Notes under the pieces: generated by a model
Databases searched by the model: none
What the model was told of the DNA's origin: nothing
What the model saw: the letters and a program-made list of their open reading frames with translations, nothing else
Position numbers and translations under genes: made by a program
Shown: piece after piece, positions 6,383 to 20,926 of the stretch
How positions within the stretch are numbered: position 1 is the first letter of the stretch
How the letters are laid out: every line of letters starts with the position of its first letter
DNA from: a virus
Direction: 5' to 3' (one strand)
Length of the DNA stretch: 64,000 nucleotides
Virus record (IMG/VR): IMGVR_UViG_3300021963_008193
Span: 1 to 64,000 of that record

Positions 6383-8149
6383 ATGAATTTAACTAAAGAA
6401 CAGTTATTGATGGAGTATGTAAAATGTATGAGGGATACTCCTTATGCGTTAAGAACATATTTACAAACTTACGATAACACTGTTTCTAAATACGTACCGT
6501 TAGAATTATTCCCTGACCAAGTTTCGTTGTTAAACGACTACGAAAATTTTAATGAGAATATCGCATTAAAGTATCGTCAGGCGGGTGTATCAACAGTAAC
6601 CGCCGCGTGGACATCTAAGAAATTAGTATTTGCGAAAAAAGAAAAACCTGAGAAAATCCTAATCATCGCCAACAAACTTGATACGTCATTGGAGATGGCG
6701 AATAAAATAAAGATGTTTGTCGGACAATGGCCTTCATGGACAAACGCGGGATTCTCACCTGAAAAAAACTCACAAAAACATTATAAGTTAACAAATGGTT
6801 GTGAAGTTAAGGCGGTTGCAACATCAAAGGATGCCTTACGTGGTTTTACCCCGACAATTCTAATCTTTGATGAGGCGGCCTTTATTGAGGCGGACAGTGA
6901 TTTCTGGTCAGCATGTATGGCGTCCTTATCCACAGGGGGTAAAGTAATTGTGGTTTCAACACCGAATGGTTATGACCCAATCTATTATGAAATCTACGAC
7001 CAAGCGTTGAGAAATATGAATGATTTTAAAATCACTGAAATGTTTTGGTTCAGAGACCCTCGTTATACTAAAGATTTATACTTAGTCAAAACTGATAATA
7101 TAATCCATTACCTCTTAAATAAAGAAGAATATACACAAGACCAAATTTTAAGTTGGGAACCGATTCCGTTTGAAGATAGGAATTATGAAGACCTTAAAAA
7201 GATTATGGATGATGGTTACAAACCATGTTCTATTTGGTTTGAGGGGATGGTTAAGAAACTTAAATACGATAAACGTAAAGTTTCTCAGGAGTTAGAGTGT
7301 AACTTCTTGGGTTCGGGGGATAACGTATTTGATTCTCTATTAATGGAGAAGGTTAGAGAAAATATGGTTAAAGAACCATCAAACAAAATGATGGGTAATG
7401 CTTTATGGATATGGAAAGAACCTGTGGTCGGTCACAAATATGTTATGGGTATTGACGTATCTCGTGGGGATAGTGAGGATTTTAGTTCGTTTCAAATTAT
7501 TGATTTTGATAGTAGAGAACAAGTTGCAGAATATGTTGGTAAATTACCACCTGATACCATGGCGGAAATTTCTTATAAATGGGCTAACATGTATTCGTGT
7601 TTTGTCGTAATTGATATCACGGGTGGGATGGGAGTATCTACCGCAAGAAAACTACAAGAGATGGGTTATAAAAATTTATACATTGATGGGGTTGATTCCG
7701 CAAACAAATGGAAGTACGACCCAAAGGCGTTAGAAAAAATTCCTGGTATCAATTTTAACAACAAACGAGTACAGATTATCGCATCCTTTGAGGAGGTCAT
7801 GAGACATGAGTTCAGAATCTACAGTTCAAGACTGTATAATGAAATGAATACGTTTGTTTATATCAATGGTAGACCTGACCACCAAAAAGGTCATCATGAT
7901 GACTTAATCATGTCAATCGCAATGGCGACTTATGTTGCCGAATCATCATTTAGTAATTTAACAAAGGTAACAGAACACACAAAGGCGATGATTAATTCAT
8001 GGGCGGTTACGAACAATGAATCAGTTGGTAAAGAGATTGAATTTAATCCTGTCATCCCATACGGTGGTGAAAGAATTAATCAATTCTCAAATAGTAATGT
8101 TGGTAGGGAAGAATACGCCAAGTATGGTTGGTTATTTGGTAATAGATAA
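6383..8149 (+). CDS. terL: Terminase large subunit (T4 gp17-like)
   Basis: Walker A variant KYRQAGVST, Walker B LIFDEAAFI, VSTPNG coupling motif, RNase H-like nuclease GIDVSRGDSED ... HDDLIMS. Confidence 0.95.
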   Translation: MNLTKEQLLMEYVKCMRDTPYALRTYLQTYDNTVSKYVPLELFPDQVSLLNDYENFNENIALKYRQAGVSTVTAAWTSKKLVFAKKEKPEKILIIANKLDTSLEMANKIKMFVGQWPSWTNAGFSPEKNSQKHYKLTNGCEVKAVATSKDALRGFTPTILIFDEAAFIEADSDFWSACMASLSTGGKVIVVSTPNGYDPIYYEIYDQALRNMNDFKITEMFWFRDPRYTKDLYLVKTDNIIHYLLNKEEYTQDQILSWEPIPFEDRNYEDLKKIMDDGYKPCSIWFEGMVKKLKYDKRKVSQELECNFLGSGDNVFDSLLMEKVRENMVKEPSNKMMGNALWIWKEPVVGHKYVMGIDVSRGDSEDFSSFQIIDFDSREQVAEYVGKLPPDTMAEISYKWANMYSCFVVIDITGGMGVSTARKLQEMGYKNLYIDGVDSANKWKYDPKALEKIPGINFNNKRVQIIASFEEVMRHEFRIYSSRLYNEMNTFVYINGRPDHQKGHHDDLIMSIAMATYVAESSFSNLTKVTEHTKAMINSWAVTNNESVGKEIEFNPVIPYGGERINQFSNSNVGREEYAKYGWLFGNR

Positions 8150-8378: not shown

Positions 8379-10199
8379 ATGGAAAATAATAATAATAGTA
8401 ATTTAACGGTATGGCAGAGGTTATCCCACGCGTTTGGACCTAACGCTCTGTTAAATCAGGATTACCCAACATATAAGTTTGATAGAAAAGAACTTTTAAA
8501 AACTCCATCAAAACAGGAGTATGATAAAGAGTTGTTACAAGCACAACAAACTTTTTACTTAGCCAATCAATGGACTAAGATTGAAAGTAACTTATACACT
8601 CAAGCGGTTTATTATGAACCAACAAGATTAGCATCATTCTATGATTATGAATCTATGGAATACACCCCTGAAATTTCTGCGGCGTTAGACATTTATGGTG
8701 AAGAATCAACTACTTCAGATGAGAATGGATATATGTTACAAATCTATTCTGAGTCAAAAAGAATTAAATCAATATTAACTGACTTATTTAACAATGTCTT
8801 AGATATTAACACCAATTTACCTATGTGGACAAGGAATACTTGTAAATATGGGGATAATTTTGTTTACTTAAAATTAGACGCTGAGAAAGGTATTATTGGT
8901 TGTATGCAATTACCAAACATCGAAATTGAACGTTTAGAAAGGGGAATGCCTGCCCAAGCGGCGAAACAAAATATCGAAGAACCTCAAGAAAATAAAGGTT
9001 TGAGATTTAAGTGGAAAGTGAAAGACATGGAATTTAATTCATGGGAAATTGCTCACTTTAGATTATTAGGTGACGACAGAAAACTTCCATACGGAACTTC
9101 TATGTTGGAAAAAGCAAGACGTATTTGGAAACAATTATTGTTATCTGAAGATGCGATGTTAATTTATAGAACATCAAGAGCACCTGAAAGAAGGGTCTTT
9201 AAAGTCTTTGTTGGTAACATGGATGATAAAGACGTTGAACCGTATGTACAACGTGTTGCAAATAAATTCAAGAGAGACCAAGTTGTAGATTCTAAAACGG
9301 GTAACGTTGATATGAGATTTAACCAAATGGCGGTTGACCAAGATTACTTTATCCCTGTTCGTGACCCTGCACAAGCAAATCCTATTGACACTTTACCTGG
9401 GGCACAAAATTTATCGGAAATTGCCGACATTGAGTACATCCAAAAGAAATTATTAACCGCATTACGTATACCAAAAGCATTTTTAGGTTTTGAGGAAGTC
9501 GTGGGAGACGGTAAAAATTTATCTTTAATGGATATCCGTTTTGCGAGAACCATTAATAGAATACAGAAATGTATGATTGCTGAGATGAACAAAATTGCAA
9601 TTATTCATTTATTCTTATTAGGGTTTGAAGATGAGCTATCAAACTTTACATTAGGTTTAACTAACCCGTCTTCACAAGCCGACTTACTTAAAGTTGATTT
9701 ATGGAAAGAAAAAATGTTACTATACAAAGATGCGGTTACCGCGATTGAGGGTATTGCTCCTGTATCTGTATCATGGGCTAAGAAACATATTTTAGGATTC
9801 TCAGATGAAGAAATTAAACTTGATTTACAACAACAACGTATTGAGAAGGCAGCGGGTGCTGAATTAACAAATACCGCAACGATAATAACTCACACAGGAT
9901 TGTTTGATACTGTTGATAAATTGTACGGTAGTAAATCAGGAGGAACTGCTAACGCGGGTGCCGCTCCACCACCACCTCCTGGGGGTGATGAAGGAGGAGC
10001 TCCACCACCGCCACCACCGCCAGGTCCTGAACCAGGTGGAGGTGCGGGAATAACACCTGAATCTTTTGAGAGAGATAACTTAAAGATATTGTTAGAATCT
10101 GACTCATTAACCGATGAAGATTCCTTTATTGATTTATCAAAAGGAAAAAATTCTTTGGGTGAAATGGAAGAGAAATTGAATAAACTTCTAAGAGATTGA
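8379..10199 (+). CDS. Portal protein (T4 gp20-like)
   Basis: PYGTSMLEKARRIWKQL.L.EDAMLIYR..RAPERRVF.VFVGNM, DYFIPVR, IDTLPGAQNL, LRIPKAFL; position after terminase. Confidence 0.95.
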   Translation: MENNNNSNLTVWQRLSHAFGPNALLNQDYPTYKFDRKELLKTPSKQEYDKELLQAQQTFYLANQWTKIESNLYTQAVYYEPTRLASFYDYESMEYTPEISAALDIYGEESTTSDENGYMLQIYSESKRIKSILTDLFNNVLDINTNLPMWTRNTCKYGDNFVYLKLDAEKGIIGCMQLPNIEIERLERGMPAQAAKQNIEEPQENKGLRFKWKVKDMEFNSWEIAHFRLLGDDRKLPYGTSMLEKARRIWKQLLLSEDAMLIYRTSRAPERRVFKVFVGNMDDKDVEPYVQRVANKFKRDQVVDSKTGNVDMRFNQMAVDQDYFIPVRDPAQANPIDTLPGAQNLSEIADIEYIQKKLLTALRIPKAFLGFEEVVGDGKNLSLMDIRFARTINRIQKCMIAEMNKIAIIHLFLLGFEDELSNFTLGLTNPSSQADLLKVDLWKEKMLLYKDAVTAIEGIAPVSVSWAKKHILGFSDEEIKLDLQQQRIEKAAGAELTNTATIITHTGLFDTVDKLYGSKSGGTANAGAAPPPPPGGDEGGAPPPPPPPGPEPGGGAGITPESFERDNLKILLESDSLTDEDSFIDLSKGKNSLGEMEEKLNKLLRD

Positions 10200-10939: not shown

Positions 10940-11127
10940 TCTTCGTTTGATTTAAAAGTTTTTTGAACGTAGATTGCTTTATTAATTTCGGCTCTTTTTG
11001 TGACTGAAGGTTTAACAAAGGTTTTACGGTTATTTAACTCAGTCATTTGTCTTGTCTTAATGACTTTACTTTTGTACATTTTTAGGGCTCTTTCGATATT
11101 CCCTTTTTCCACTTTGATTATTAGCAT
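10936..11127 (-). CDS. rpsU: Phage-encoded ribosomal protein bS21
   Basis: MLIIKV..GNIERALK.YK.K..K....EL..RK.FVKPSV.KR..I.KA.Y matches Bacteroidota/Flavobacterium-type bS21. Confidence 0.9.
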   Translation of the reverse strand: MLIIKVEKGNIERALKMYKSKVIKTRQMTELNNRKTFVKPSVTKRAEINKAIYVQKTFKSNED

Positions 11128-16506: not shown

Positions 16507-18642
16507 ATGAAAAAAATACTAATCTTATTATCATTTCTAATTACCTCATCAATATTCTCACAGGTTAGTTACTACACATTTAGTGAAACTACGGGTACAT
16601 ACACATCAATAGTTGCTGGTACACAATTAGTAACAACTACAGGGGGTGCAACCGCTTATGATACTGACGGTAGTTATTTCACCCTACCCGTAGGTTCCCA
16701 ATTTATATTTAATGGTACAACTATAACATCAGTTAATATGACCGCCGATGGTTCGGTTTGGTTAAATCCAAATACTACAACAACAGGTAATAATGTTACA
16801 GGACCAATATCCTCTGCAGGAGTTGCTTCAGGAGTAATATCTGCGATGGGTATGGATTTAAGAAGTACCGCGATTTCAAGTCAAGTATATGAAAGAAGAT
16901 GGCAAGATAACGGTACTGAAGTTATATTCCAATGGCAAAATGTTGCTAGATACTCAACAACAACACCCTTTGTACAAAATGAAAGATTCTCATTTCAAGT
17001 AAGGGTAAATAAATCTACAGGGGTTGTTCGTATCATTTATGGTAATATGACCACAATTACTAGTAGTACTCAATATACACCTATGGTTGGTTTAAGAGGG
17101 TCTGTAAATACTGATTTTAATAATAGAAGATTAACAAATGCAATTCCTGATGCAACACCAAATTGGGGAGCACCGAATGGAACAACTGCAGGTACATCAA
17201 ACGCACATACGGTTAGATTTACATCAACAGGGACCTGTTACCCAACTTCGGGATTAACATTTATATGGACACCACCTGCGGTTCCATCAAATGACGCTTG
17301 TTCTAACGCCTCATTATTAACATTACAATGTCCTGGTTCCACCACAGGAACTATTGGGACGACTATCGGTTCTATAACTACTGATGGGTTACCAAATCCT
17401 TCTTGTGATGCCACAGGAACTATTAGAGATGTGTGGTATTATTTTAATACGGGAAATAATACTGAAATGAACCTTTATGCGTCATTAGGGACCTCAACAT
17501 GGATTGGTGTTGAAATTTATACTACTTGTGGTACATTGGCAACAGGATTAAATACTACATGTGATTTTAATTTAATTTCACCAAATCCAACAAATATAAC
17601 AGGTCTTTTAATGAATACAACATATCGTTTAAGAATTTTTACAAATGTGTCATATGACACTCCAGGAACTTTTACAATATATTTAAATACTGTAAATAAT
17701 ACATCAACACTTTCTTCAATAACAGGAACTGATAACCAAACTGTTTGTCAAAACACTTCAATAACTAATATTACTTATAACACAAAAGGTGCGACAGGTT
17801 CTACCTTTTCAGGATTACCAACGGGAGTGTCGGGAAGTTGGAATAGTAATGTAGTAACGATTACGGGAACTCCATTAGTTTCAGGTACGTTTAATTATGT
17901 TATAACTCTTACGGGTGGTTGCGGTACAGTCACATCAAATGGTGCTATAACCGTCAATCCTACAGTTGTAACTATTTCATCAATAACAGGTAATCCAAAC
18001 ATAATTGCAGGTACAACTGAAAATTACTCAATACCGTCAGACCCAAATGCAACAACATATCAATGGGATTATAGGGAAAGTAGTACATCAAGTTGGGTCA
18101 CTAATGTTTCAAACACTAACTCAGTAAGTATTACTTGGCCAACAACAACAACTGATGGTGAAGTTAAGATTACAGTGTCAAATAGTTGTAATACGGTAAA
18201 TAAAAATTTGTTAATCCATGTTGACGGTATCCTACCTGTTGAATTACTGTATTTTGAAGGTAAACCCGTTTCAAATACTAACTACTTATATTGGTCAACC
18301 GCGTCAGAACATAACTCAGATTATTTTGAAATTCTACACAGTGTGAATGGTGAAGTATGGGAATCTATTGGACAAATTACTTCATCAGGTAATTCAACAA
18401 TCAAAAACGACTATCACTATTATCATAACTCACCCGAACACGTATTTAATTATTACATATTAAAACAAGTTGATTATGATGGTGTGTATAAAACCTATAA
18501 TCCAATTGTGATTAATAACAGAATTAAAGACAAAAAAATTATAAAGTACACTAACATCCTTGGACAAGAAGTGGGACCAAATGAAAATGGTGTTATTTTT
18601 ATCACTTATGAGGATAATTCAGTGATAAAAACCGTAAAATAA
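16507..18642 (+). CDS. Secreted Bacteroidota-type surface protein (Sec signal, Ig/PKD-like domains, T9SS-cargo-like C-terminus)
   Basis: Signal peptide MKKILILLSFLITSSIFS|Q; PSNDAC..A..L motif; LPVELLYFEG...WSTASEHNSDYFEI..S..G...YY.LKQVDYDG; C-terminal IIKYTNILGQEV...GVIFITYED.S..K. Confidence 0.75.
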   Translation: MKKILILLSFLITSSIFSQVSYYTFSETTGTYTSIVAGTQLVTTTGGATAYDTDGSYFTLPVGSQFIFNGTTITSVNMTADGSVWLNPNTTTTGNNVTGPISSAGVASGVISAMGMDLRSTAISSQVYERRWQDNGTEVIFQWQNVARYSTTTPFVQNERFSFQVRVNKSTGVVRIIYGNMTTITSSTQYTPMVGLRGSVNTDFNNRRLTNAIPDATPNWGAPNGTTAGTSNAHTVRFTSTGTCYPTSGLTFIWTPPAVPSNDACSNASLLTLQCPGSTTGTIGTTIGSITTDGLPNPSCDATGTIRDVWYYFNTGNNTEMNLYASLGTSTWIGVEIYTTCGTLATGLNTTCDFNLISPNPTNITGLLMNTTYRLRIFTNVSYDTPGTFTIYLNTVNNTSTLSSITGTDNQTVCQNTSITNITYNTKGATGSTFSGLPTGVSGSWNSNVVTITGTPLVSGTFNYVITLTGGCGTVTSNGAITVNPTVVTISSITGNPNIIAGTTENYSIPSDPNATTYQWDYRESSTSSWVTNVSNTNSVSITWPTTTTDGEVKITVSNSCNTVNKNLLIHVDGILPVELLYFEGKPVSNTNYLYWSTASEHNSDYFEILHSVNGEVWESIGQITSSGNSTIKNDYHYYHNSPEHVFNYYILKQVDYDGVYKTYNPIVINNRIKDKKIIKYTNILGQEVGPNENGVIFITYEDNSVIKTVK

Positions 18643-18656
18643 AAGTATTTATATGT

Positions 18657-19073
18657 ATGAATACTTTAAGAGGATTAATTAAGGAAAATCTTTTATTAGA
18701 AAAACGAATTGGGCAAATCTCGGCCAATTTTGAGATTGTGTTTGGTTTTGATGTAATTACCACTAAACATTCTAAAGATAGAAGTGGTGGTAGAGAAGAA
18801 CTCGAGGGATACAACCAAAGACCTGTCGATAATAAAGAAATTGTTGAGGTTCTTAATATGTTCAAGAAAGACATTGCCGAAAAAATTATCATGGGAGAAA
18901 TAAAAGACCAAGAAAATTTTGTGGTAATTTCAAATCAATGGGAATTAGCCATGGCAATTATCCCTGAAAAAGAATCGAACACTTATTGGAAATTAATAGT
19001 TAGAACAGTATTTAGACAATCAGATACTCATAAGTTCTTATATGGAAGAAACCAAGTGGTTTTGGAAAAATAA
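18657..19073 (+). CDS. Hypothetical protein, RelE/BECR-like RNase fold suspected
   Basis: TKHSKDR...R near the N-terminus and LIVRTVF near the C-terminus resemble BECR toxins; leader MNTLRGLIKENLLLE. Confidence 0.45.
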   Translation: MNTLRGLIKENLLLEKRIGQISANFEIVFGFDVITTKHSKDRSGGREELEGYNQRPVDNKEIVEVLNMFKKDIAEKIIMGEIKDQENFVVISNQWELAMAIIPEKESNTYWKLIVRTVFRQSDTHKFLYGRNQVVLEK

Positions 19074-19150
19074 ATGAGGGTTGTATCTAAATCGTTGCCT
19101 CCCCCATTTCCTGTAATTAATTGTATCTAAATCGTTACCTTCAATCACAG
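19066..19150 (-). ncRNA. Putative small RNA with two stem-loops carrying the same 20-nt loop
   Basis: Minus strand: CUGUGAUUGA[AGGUAACGAUUUAGAUACAA]UUAAUUACAG G AAAUGGGGG[AGGCAACGAUUUAGAUACAA]CCCUCAUUU AUUUUU. Stems pair fully only with G-U wobbles; consensus promoter directly upstream. Confidence 0.65.
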
Positions 19151-19152
19151 TA

Positions 19153-19183
19153 CAAAGATACACATTTTTCGGACATTTACAAA
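19153..19183 (-). promoter_or_regulatory. Bacteroidota primary-sigma promoter (-33 TTTG, 19-nt spacer, -7 TATCTTTG)
   Basis: Minus strand TTTG-taaatgtccgaaaaatgtg-TATCTTTG is an exact match to TTTG-N19-21-TAnnTTTG. Confidence 0.75.
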
Positions 19184-19225
19184 CTTTTTTTATCTAATTC
19201 GGGATATTTATATAAAAAAGTTAAA

Positions 19226-19750
19226 ATGAAAAGATTAATCATAAATGAAAGTGAACGAGAGTTAATTAAACTACTTCATGAATCCGCGATTAAAAAAGAA
19301 AAAAGAAATTTAATTTCCGAGGCTAACGGTCAGTCTAAAGAAGAATACCAAGCATGTATCAAACAAATGGGGTCCCCATCCCCAACTACCTCAGGACAAT
19401 GGAGTATTGGTGGAATTAGGTCATTAAAAGGATATCAATTCTATTCCAACATGAGGGTTAGGAAACCTGATGGAGGAATGACTAACTACTCATGTTCAGG
19501 TAATAAAATAGTTATTGATGGTAAAACCTATACAGTATCAAATGGTACTAAAAAAAGTTATAGTTATTACATTAAACAAGCTCAAACATTGTTAGGTGTT
19601 CCTACAACAGGTATTGTTGATGATAAAACATTAGAAGCCGCTAAGACAAAACTTGGAGGAGGTGCAACACCATCCTCAACAACTGATTCATCATCAACAA
19701 CTACAACAACAACGGTTGCACCTGTTACAACAACAAGTTTAGACCTTTAA
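19226..19750 (+). CDS. Hypothetical protein with degenerate PG-binding motif and Thr/Ser tail
   Basis: ATG at 19226 (MKRLIINESE) after the late motif at 19205-19212; IKQAQTLLGVPTTGIVDDKTLEA. Confidence 0.6.
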   Translation: MKRLIINESERELIKLLHESAIKKEKRNLISEANGQSKEEYQACIKQMGSPSPTTSGQWSIGGIRSLKGYQFYSNMRVRKPDGGMTNYSCSGNKIVIDGKTYTVSNGTKKSYSYYIKQAQTLLGVPTTGIVDDKTLEAAKTKLGGGATPSSTTDSSSTTTTTTVAPVTTTSLDL

Positions 19751-19776
19751 AAAAAAATAATTAAAAACGTAAAACA

Positions 19777-20322
19777 ATGAAAAAACTATATTTTTTAAAC
19801 GAGGAAGAGTCTAATAGAATATTAAATCTTCACAAAAAGGCAGTTAAAAAACAATTTTTAAATGAAGCTGGACCATATCAAGATACTGAGTCTATACCAT
19901 CCTCCCCTACAACACCTGCATCACCAACTACACCCACTACTCCATCAACACCTACTACACCCACAACACCAACTACTCCGTCAACACCTGCGTCACCAAC
20001 AACGTCTACACCAACAACACCAACAGGTTCGTTGACTCAACAGTTACAAACTCTTATAGGTGCAAAGGCGGATGATAAGTTTGGTAAATTGTCATTACAG
20101 GCATTGACTGATAAATTAAAAACCGTCCCAAAACCAAGTACACCAACACCCGCAACAGGAACACCCGCAACAGGAACACCCGCGACAGGAACACCTGCGA
20201 CAGGAACACCTGCGACAGGAACACCTGCGACAGGAACACCCGCAACAGGAACACCCGCAACAGGAACACCCGCAACAGGAACACCTGCGACAGGGACTAA
20301 AATGAATAATACTGATTTATAA
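19777..20322 (+). CDS. Pro/Thr-rich protein with degenerate PG-binding motif and TPATG repeats
   Basis: QQLQTLIGAKADDKFGKLSLQA flanked by TP-rich segments. Confidence 0.65.
   Translation: MKKLYFLNEEESNRILNLHKKAVKKQFLNEAGPYQDTESIPSSPTTPASPTTPTTPSTPTTPTTPTTPSTPASPTTSTPTTPTGSLTQQLQTLIGAKADDKFGKLSLQALTDKLKTVPKPSTPTPATGTPATGTPATGTPATGTPATGTPATGTPATGTPATGTPATGTPATGTKMNNTDL
20146..20295 (+). repeat. 10 x 15-bp tandem repeat ACACCYGCRACAGGR (TPATG)
   Basis: Counted directly; variation only at third codon positions. Confidence 0.95.
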
Positions 20323-20703
20323 TTAAACCACGATACAATCAATAATTCTACTTGCGGTAGAATAGTTGGTGGCTAACGGAACGTCATGGACGTTACAAAT
20401 TCTTAATAACATACTAACATCCACTTGATGTGGATGAACTTCTAAAGGGTCGATGAAGAATATAACTACATCGACTTCTTTATTTATAATCATTGATGCA
20501 ATCTGAGCATCACCACCCATTGGTCCACTGAATACTGTTTGAACTTTCTGTAACCCCGCGTGAATTAAGTGTTTTCCCGTTGTCCCCGTTGCAACAACTT
20601 CAACATTGTTTGAGGTGAAGAACGGTAAACGTTTCATAACAAATGAAACCATATCAGCCTTCTTCCCATCATGAGCAATTAACGCTAATTTAATTTTGTT
20701 CAT
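20323..20703 (-). CDS. mgsA: Methylglyoxal synthase
   Basis: LALIAHDGKK, VATGTTG, SGPMGGDAQI, FFIDPL..HPHQVDV..LLRIC.VH.VPLATN. Confidence 0.93.
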   Translation of the reverse strand: MNKIKLALIAHDGKKADMVSFVMKRLPFFTSNNVEVVATGTTGKHLIHAGLQKVQTVFSGPMGGDAQIASMIINKEVDVVIFFIDPLEVHPHQVDVSMLLRICNVHDVPLATNYSTASRIIDCIVV

Positions 20704-20926
20704 CAACTTCTTCTTTTTTTGATAATACTCGAATACATTTGGAAATCACTTCAGATTCACCTAAAGAATAAACACCTGATTCATGGGCATATTTAACGGC
20801 TTGTACCAATAGATAGATTGAATGGTCTTTATCCATAGTCTGTAATAATACATCCAAATGGTCTTCATTAAGTAATGGGACCGAATTAAATAATTTCCCA
20901 AATAATTGTTGTTCTTCCATTTCCAT
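20690..20926 (-). CDS. Hypothetical protein
   Basis: 78-aa ORF coupled to mgsA. Confidence 0.65.
   Translation of the reverse strand: MEMEEQQLFGKLFNSVPLLNEDHLDVLLQTMDKDHSIYLLVQAVKYAHESGVYSLGESEVISKCIRVLSKKEEVDEQN

Follow-up and report, generated by a model that had tools for sequence, protein, structure and literature searches.

What does a phage do with a 20-nucleotide (nt) sequence that it carries twice between two plus-strand genes (18657-19073 and 19223-19750), each time enclosed by a different stem? The question is posed by the window, the whole 64,000-nt stretch of IMG/VR record IMGVR_UViG_3300021963_008193 that was analysed here, in which the repeat supplies the loops of a predicted small RNA gene at 19064-19150 on the minus strand, the strand on which all coordinates of the RNA are given. 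The RNA belongs to a large, undescribed RNA family of aquatic Bacteroidota phages, and it is genetically linked to a convergent gene for a 138-amino-acid (aa) protein, labelled p138. We tentatively favour the reading, to which we give not quite an even chance, that the phage uses the RNA as a multivalent decoy, or antidote, against a RegB/RelE-like nuclease of its own.

Two hairpins with unrelated stems and a shared loop

The two copies of the direct repeat (19081-19100 and 19121-19140) have a spacing of 40 nt and differ by one mismatch, as the first-pass annotation of the sequence had described, and both the sequence and RNAfold bear out its claim that each copy is the loop of a hairpin. By sequence reading, hairpin 1 (19111-19150) consists of a 5' stem CUGUGAUUGA (19150-19141), a 20-nt loop AGGUAACGAUUUAGAUACAA (19140-19121) and a 3' stem UUAAUUACAG (19120-19111); it is identified by its fold, by covariation in the family, and as a seed of the covariance model R1. 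After a linker of a single G, hairpin 2 (19072-19109), which would double as the terminator stem, consists of a 5' stem AAAUGGGGG (19109-19101), a loop AGGCAACGAUUUAGAUACAA (19100-19081) and a 3' stem CCCUCAUUU (19080-19072), identified by its fold and by model R1 (56.5 bits, E 3.6e-14), and the U-rich tail AUUUUUCC (19064-19071) follows. RNAfold of 19060-19152 on the minus strand returns precisely these two hairpins at -23.5 kcal/mol (z -4.61), a stability that none of 200 shuffled sequences attains, whereas the plus-strand fold of the same region (z -1.11) is no better than shuffles; the earlier choice of the minus strand as the RNA strand is thereby upheld.

The 14-nt core of the loop, allowing up to 2 mismatches, occurs 5 times in the window versus 0.97 expected. 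A degenerate third copy of the core, TTTTATCTAATTCG, matching at 12 of 14 nt, lies on the plus strand at 19188-19201, just upstream of the -33 promoter element described below; it has no visible stem, and could be the remnant of a decayed hairpin or a match by chance.

Promoter, transcript ends and an apparent open reading frame

The Bacteroidota promoter that the first-pass annotation placed upstream of stem 1 is present on the minus strand, in the form TTTG-N19-TATCTTTG: a -33 element TTTG (19180-19183), read from the sequence, is separated by 19 nt (counted from 19183-19180) from the -7 box TATCTTTG (19153-19160), which fits the Bacteroidota sigma-A consensus TAnnTTTG and is conserved in relatives, most of which have TTTG 18-20 nt upstream of the -7 box. 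Because the flavobacterial sigma-A -7 box TAnnTTTG is located at -12 to -5 (PMC9723704), transcription is predicted to start at about 19148, which falls 2 nt within stem 1 as drawn; the 10 base pairs (bp) of stem 1 in the earlier drawing therefore stand for the sequence but probably amount to 8 bp in the transcript. The predicted transcript, from about 19148 to the U-run, is about 85 nt long, and the two hairpins still form when it is folded.

The statement that no open reading frame (ORF) follows the promoter requires qualification, since a 41-aa ORF can be drawn at 19038-19163 on the minus strand, with a GTG start within the -7 box. The nearest relative of the locus (84% protein identity in the neighbouring gene) has a 1-nt indel in the hairpin linker, so the ORF is not conserved, and it was rejected as coding sequence.

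In relatives, the promoter, the U-tail, the covarying stems and the bias towards G-U pairs on this strand are all conserved, in agreement with the original proposal of a stand-alone minus-strand gene. From these signals, 19064-19150 is predicted to be an independently transcribed small RNA gene that is driven by a host sigma-A promoter and ended by hairpin 2 and the U-run.

A family of hairpins in aquatic Bacteroidota phages

Scanning IMG/VR viral contigs with the exact 16-nt loop core yielded 69 loci, the contexts of which fall cleanly into about 55 distinct hairpin units with differing stems and about 25 chance coding matches without a stem. The consensus of the loop is RGGNAACGAUUNAGAUACAA, or R-G-G-N-AACGAUU-N-AGAUACAA, with variation almost confined to the two N positions, an invariance that the exact-match search has partly built in; where a copy was reached only by way of the adjacent protein gene, or is the second in its array, 14-16 of the 16 bases of the loop core are still retained. 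The family is abundant in lake and marine viromes.

Thirty-three hairpin units from different phages were placed in a gapless alignment (A1), which supplied the comparison of stem covariation with loop conservation that the first-pass annotation had proposed. Covariation extends to all 10 stem pairs, pairing is kept in 81% of cells, and cells with a double change number 128, compared with 53.5 ± 5.8 in shuffled alignments (none of 500 reached 128) and 40-64 in slid controls. Differing stems around a conserved loop, first noticed in the window, are thus the defining property of the whole family. Within the stems of A1, G-U pairs outnumber A-C pairs, which would be G-U on the opposite strand (34 versus 11), and G-C pairs outnumber C-G pairs (87 versus 4), the 5' arm being G-rich; the folded strand is therefore the one that corresponds to the minus strand of the window. 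Covariance model R1 recovers units at E 1e-5 to 1e-14. The expectation that the RNA would be uncatalogued also held, for no match was found in Rfam 15: cmscan, at E<=10 over 18000-20500 of the window and at E<=0.1 over seven related loci, returned only tRNAs and chance hits.

Genes of the family contain one to four hairpins, and the spacing of the repeat ranges from 32 to 127 nt among phages. In 15 of the 20 distinct multi-hairpin arrays, and in each of the five single-hairpin genes that stand alone, an exact TAnnTTTG precedes the first stem by 1-11 nt; most multi-hairpin arrays close with a T-run after their final hairpin, which is rich in G+C. Single hairpins are also found inside phage tRNA arrays, on the tRNA strand, at five loci that represent three contexts (L009, L016, L025, L057 and L058), ending 2 nt short of the following tRNA in L016 and L058 and flanked by tRNAs at a distance of 1 nt each way in L057. 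These hairpins provide independent support for a function at the level of RNA on this strand, and for the single hairpin as functional unit. The functional unit of the family is, we conclude, a hairpin with an arbitrary stem that displays a near-invariant 20-nt loop.

The same observations bear on the possibility that the repeat is a DNA-level element, such as operator or iteron repeats bound by a DNA-binding protein or a bidirectional terminator, and that no functional RNA is made. Direct repeats 40 bp apart, about four turns of the helix, with the third degenerate copy 67 bp further on, would suit such an element; but covariation of the stems with strand-specific G-U pairs, the variable spacing between phages, a promoter directly upstream and a U-run directly downstream, and an orientation in tRNA arrays that is that of the tRNAs make it extremely improbable.

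Some members of the family have additional features. Arrays with 69-nt spacing (L013:1487-1510, L050, L046 and L074-L081) have a middle hairpin between the two loop hairpins, the loop of which is conserved and different, of the form nCGAAAnAAnC (for example, GUUAG-AACGAAACAAUC-CUAAC). Runs of tiny mini-genes, each comprising a promoter (TTTG-N20-TAnnTTTG), a hairpin and a terminator, are found near tRNA genes in L086:1840-2060 (minus strand; G010, at about 70.3 kilobases (kb)), L004 and L059, with the conserved loop in only one mini-gene; these phages seem to encode several tiny RNAs in series. In L025, ARAGORN reports three odd tRNAs on the minus strand, with a 4-base anticodon (ttag; 8770-8843), a 2-base anticodon (9669-9745) and a CUA anticodon ('tRNA-Pyl'; 10000-10072), which may represent suppressor tRNAs or hint that stop codons are recoded.

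Does the loop pair with another RNA?

The first-pass annotation speculated that the loop mimics the 790-loop region of 16S rRNA. This idea fails: only the 8-mer UUAGAUAC is shared (16S 787-795), and 750 of 1000 shuffled loops match the 16S, 23S and 5S rRNAs of Escherichia coli at least as well. Its other suggestion of a dual antisense seed would make the RNA a trans-acting regulator, the two exposed loops of which seek host or phage mRNA, with p138 as a chaperone or an unrelated neighbour. The loops are indeed large, single-stranded, conserved and held on stable stems, two or more seeds per RNA would raise avidity, and a fixed loop with free stems fits a conserved target. Against this, the 75-kb record of the phage holds complements of the loop only at the locus itself, along with near-matches at chance level and no target beyond chance, complementarity to rRNA is likewise at chance, and seeds seldom stay identical at 16 of 16 positions in phages this divergent without a very conserved target. 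We consider trans-acting antisense regulation improbable.

Linkage to a convergent gene

The p138 gene (18657-19073, plus strand), which encodes 138 aa of no known family with a predicted RelE/RegB-type ribonuclease-like fold, converges with the RNA so closely that the last RNA stem overlaps its stop codon; the U-tail and the last 2 nt of stem 2 are antisense to the stop codon and the final codons. Starting from the RNA, 18 of the 20 distinct multi-hairpin arrays directly adjoin a convergent homologue of p138 (39-84% identity). Among 16 diverse loci, the outer neighbours of the RNA-p138 pair belong to at least 10 unrelated groups on each side, and since these neighbours differ, the pair moves as a module and its adjacency is not mere conservation of gene order.

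Overlap of this kind could also signify a cis-antisense regulator, an RNA that covers the 3' end of the p138 mRNA, is fully complementary to read-through toward 19223-19750, and forms a duplex that leads to cleavage or termination in a type I-like manner. The convergent arrangement, the overlap of the stop codon by the end of stem 2 and the U-tail, and the finding of no good plus-strand terminator or promoter between the 18657-19073 and 19223-19750 genes are what such a regulator would require. The coding overlap, however, is only about 10 nt, and the proposal leaves unexplained the conserved loops with drifting stems, the hairpins in tRNA arrays and the unlinked mini-genes, so that we regard it as very improbable. 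Type I toxin-antitoxin (TA) systems differ further in that the toxin is a small hydrophobic peptide, whereas the partner here is a 138-aa protein predicted to be soluble and alpha/beta in fold, with an overlap of about 10 nt at the 3' end alone.

A predicted ribonuclease fold for p138

Neither p138 nor its 62 relatives gave a sequence match in Pfam, PHROG or PDB, the sole trace being DUF4258 at E 1.8 in one member; the nearest named cluster in the ESM Atlas is viral DUF4258 (score 0.78), which is a lead only. An AlphaFold2 model of p138 from a deeper alignment has a pLDDT (predicted local distance difference test score) of 87.5, and when VIA-align compared it with 48,161 chains, about 24 of the 30 best rows were RelE, HigB, YoeB, YafQ, BrnT, ParE, CdiA-CT, colicin E5 or RegB. 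The matches include CdiA-CT of Y. kristensenii (Z 6.0), RelE (Z 5.5-5.8), PrpT (Z 5.3), HigB2 (Z 5.2), colicin E5 (Z 5.0), ParE (Z 4.9-5.0), BrnT (Z 4.8, root-mean-square deviation (rmsd) 2.5 over 65 residues), YafQ (Z 4.3), T4 RegB (2hx6; Z 4.3, rmsd 4.4, 95 residues aligned) and YoeB (Z 3.9-4.2). The top rows of a Foldseek search against PDB are HigB2 and YoeB at E 0.2-0.3 (best 0.22).

The lead to T4 RegB has further elements. RegB has a RelE/YoeB-like alpha/beta fold with an additional first helix (PMC3014915), and the p138 model likewise has an extra N-terminal helix (residues 4-12). The family profile (A3) aligns by hhalign with RegB over 16 columns (E 0.05, probability 1%), placing F31...T36-x-H38-x-x-D41-R42 of p138 on F41...S46-x-H48-x-x-D51-R52 of RegB; H38 is present in at least 90% of the 62 relatives, and H48 is, with His68, one of the two catalytic histidines of RegB (PMC3014915). 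These leads are individually weak and agree with one another, and on their agreement we rate a RelE/RegB-type ribonuclease fold for p138, as modelled, as probable.

Related proteins with other RNAs

Searched with a profile, 1.84 billion representatives yielded 111 clusters of the p138 protein family (about 110 clusters at 50% identity), some of which are accompanied by different RNAs. One distant subfamily (E of about 1e-10 against the core profile and about 1e-34 against the broad one) lies convergent with a twin-hairpin RNA that is preceded by a promoter and has GUCAGAAUAC in both loops on unrelated stems (fold z -4.6). When the GUCAGAAUAC motif pair was itself used for an RNA-first scan, p138-like neighbours were found for six of seven distinct RNAs, one of them about 1 kb away; none was detected at L155, which has a twin GUCAGAAUAC RNA. 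Another subfamily, and one clade nested in the core family, have a third RNA of about 150-200 nt, promoter-driven and convergent, with no match in Rfam. No RNA accompanies the most distant p138 clade (27 rows). When the type of RNA is mapped on a tree of 74 proteins, it requires 8 changes, versus 32.6 in shuffles; RNA type tracks protein clade, a clustering much of which shared descent can explain. The recurrence of a p138-like gene with a convergent small RNA, the RNA having been exchanged, argues for a functional pair.

The twin-loop RNA, exemplified by L163:2186-2258 (plus strand) and also seen in L149, L156/L174, L167, L171, L142 and L145, is laid out as a TAnnTTTG promoter, a hairpin with stem GUUCU/AGAAC and a terminator hairpin with stem CCACG/CGUGG; for the versions in L152/L162/L165/L170 and L154/L158/L161, no p138-like gene lies in the fetched stretch. 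The third RNA, found on the minus strand at about 1120-1400 in L195-L199 and at about 1905-2110 in L088-L091, combines the conserved core GGGUYGAACYGAGA..ACCC..CAACUCRGCGG.AUG..GACGAA with a strong terminator. In L088/L089, and likewise beside the twin-loop RNA in L142/L143/L155/L171, the strand of the RNA has a sigma-factor-like gene upstream; stretches at the loci of the third RNA may loosely resemble the AACGAUUNAGAUACAA loop.

In two divergent lineages without a small RNA, a gene for a protein of 363-365 aa with several S1 RNA-binding domains (Pfam E 4e-22) meets a p138-like gene tail-to-tail, the two having a terminator in common (L175:1651-2742, minus strand, in LR745206.1; L128:1961-3058, minus strand; and L129). 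No S1 domain was found in the 75-kb record to which the window belongs.

Is p138 the partner of the RNA?

The earlier suggestion of a bivalent protein sponge or decoy survives as the best reading, with a change of partner: the likeliest one is the phage's own convergent p138, not a host defence protein. According to this proposal, the RNA and the p138 gene constitute a mobile two-gene module; each loop would be a high-affinity recognition site or pseudo-substrate for p138; and the multi-loop RNA would titrate or time the p138 nuclease, similarly to a type III RNA antitoxin but with a different construction.

Several results weigh against it. With regard to the nuclease, no chain among the 48,161 reaches Z >= 8 against p138 (the best is the Z 6.0 given above), no Foldseek hit against PDB has E <= 0.001 with either p138 model, the profile match to RegB is weak, and no conserved histidine was seen at the place expected for RegB His68, short of which the hhalign alignment ends. 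With regard to the pairing, it is not obligatory: the remaining two of the 20 arrays have a 227-aa ORF in the place of p138; a protein-first sample contains a clade at 64-67% identity, of 15 loci, without an adjacent RNA, one phage of which has a single hairpin as a separate mini-gene 25 kb away; and records with single hairpins only, two of which are 64% and 73% complete, have no p138-like gene detectable even with the broad profile, a third such record having a distant p138 relative elsewhere. In addition, the invariance of the loop is in part a product of the search, as stated above, and shared descent may take the place of co-evolution as the cause of the match between RNA type and protein clade.

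The 227-aa ORF (MKKYIPSQEEIE...) is convergent with a two-hairpin RNA at L018:1380-2063 and L070:350-1033 (plus strand), and in both loci the gene beyond the RNA begins much like the gene at 19223 of the window.

Some of these results would be accommodated if the loop acted on a conserved partner other than p138, with p138 nearby only because it belongs to the same pathway. Such a partner could come from the host, as a protein or an RNA machine (ribosome, RNase, RNA polymerase or defence nuclease), or could be the nucleases of competing phages. The loop is near-invariant while the identity of p138 falls to 39%, single hairpins with their own promoter or in tRNA arrays exist in records without a detectable p138-like gene, and the phage, which also encodes bS21, interferes with translation. 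However, the RNA-p138 pair moves as a module among unrelated neighbours, sister protein clades have different RNAs at the same place, and the records with hairpins only are incomplete; in addition, nothing in hosts is visibly mimicked, in that no two-copy loop array or p138 relative was found in the genomes of 185,579 species, and similarity to rRNA is at the level of chance. We judge such a partner, the main rival to p138, to be rather unlikely.

Comparison with known systems

Type III TA systems (ToxIN, CptIN and TenpIN/AbiQ, reviewed in PMC5086642) resemble the proposed module in the genetic coupling of a short, repetitive non-coding RNA with a small protein of endoribonuclease type (here predicted), in having several protein-binding units (here putative) per transcript, and in the occurrence of RNA and protein families in cognate sets. 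The architecture differs in several respects. Known systems are operons with one promoter, repeats upstream of the toxin and a Rho-independent terminator between them (PMC5086642), whereas here a TTTG-N19-TATCTTTG promoter belongs to the RNA alone, which converges with the protein gene from the opposite strand; their antitoxins are tandem near-identical repeats that form pseudoknots, whereas here repetition is confined to the 20-nt loop, on stems that have nothing in common; their toxins, which process their own antitoxin RNA and are directly bound and inhibited by it, are MazF/Kid/CcdB-like, whereas the fold lists for p138 are dominated by proteins of RelE/ParE/BECR type, all with Z <= 6.0; and they are bacterial defence or plasmid modules, whereas the present family was found only in phage contigs.

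T4 RegB (PDB 2HX6; PMC3014915) is likewise a small basic phage-encoded protein, and p138 would share with it a RelE/YoeB-type fold, the extra N-terminal helix and the local profile match of H38/D41/R42 with H48/D51/R52. Ribosomal protein S1 raises the activity of RegB by up to 100-fold (PMC3014915; the use of S1 is also in the note to the T4 record), which is a further likeness to those p138-like genes that have an S1-domain gene beside them. The differences are that the two proteins have no significant sequence relationship (hhalign E 0.05 over 16 columns, no Pfam hit) and a structural Z of only 4.3, and that no equivalent of His68 was identified in p138. A difference also lies in the hosts and in the RNA itself. 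The host lineage of the present phages largely does without the Shine-Dalgarno GGAG sites that RegB cuts, and we know of no RNA partner of RegB.

Phages also deploy RNA decoys against host systems, RNA anti-CRISPRs among them. The pseudo-ToxI of phage PhiTE (PMC3475682) resembles the function proposed here, in that a small repetitive phage RNA neutralizes a protein by offering it an RNA ligand. Decoys of this type mimic a host RNA repeat, whereas no host counterpart of the present RNA or protein was found in the 185,579 genomes, and the candidate partner is phage-encoded.

The stable RNAs C and D of T4 are small RNAs of unknown function located in the phage tRNA array, from which they are presumably released by tRNA processing enzymes. 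The single hairpins in L009, L016, L025, L057 and L058 resemble them in placement, and the copy in the window lies outside a tRNA array.

Phage context and distribution

The window belongs to a 75-kb IMG/VR fragment, 26% complete, of a large Bacteroidota phage. It encodes a large terminase subunit (6383-8149, plus strand) and, as the first-pass annotation had stated, ribosomal protein bS21 (10963-11118, minus strand; Pfam S21, 42.4 bits), a content that fits the bS21 phages of Bacteroidota that have been described (PMC9723584); the description of those phages makes no mention of this RNA. Neither the two-copy loop pattern nor relatives of p138 were found among 185,579 prokaryote species, each represented by one genome, and blastn of 4 kb against GenBank phages returned nothing relevant. 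The only match of p138 by tblastn against GenBank phages is LR745206.1, an unannotated 635-kb phage of uncultured, metagenomic origin, in which no RNA adjoins the p138 relative. Further along in the window are a 181-aa ORF (19777-20322, plus strand) that consists largely of PT-rich sequence and PATGT repeats, and a 127-aa ORF (20323-20706, minus strand) with an MGS-like domain (Pfam 2.7e-16), an unusual find in phage DNA.

Implications for phage RNA biology

To our knowledge, hardly any small RNAs have been described from Bacteroidota phages, and we know of neither Hfq nor ProQ in the Bacteroidota hosts. Against this background, an RNA family is now tied to an uncharacterized protein family, and its design rule is simple and unusual: any stem, one fixed loop, one to four copies. 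A more general claim, that Bacteroidota phages have a new class of protein-RNA control module, in which an endoribonuclease of RegB/RelE fold is held in check or targeted by a convergent small RNA that presents its recognition sequence on hairpin loops, the RNA partner having been exchanged at least three times, appears to us doubtful but worth stating. If it is true, the RNA would be a partner of the 'anti-RegB' type, the possible existence of which was raised in a review of T4 RegB (PMC3014915), and the first RNA antidote for a nuclease of the RelE superfamily.

Should the loop bind a host factor instead, it would offer a compact and conserved handle on a step of host takeover. If the RNA does control a RegB/RelE-like nuclease, it would give a first answer to the question of an antidote for T4 RegB, its clade-specific loops would furnish ready-made orthogonal RNA-protein pairs, and the logic of RNA antitoxins would extend to another toxin fold and to lytic phages.

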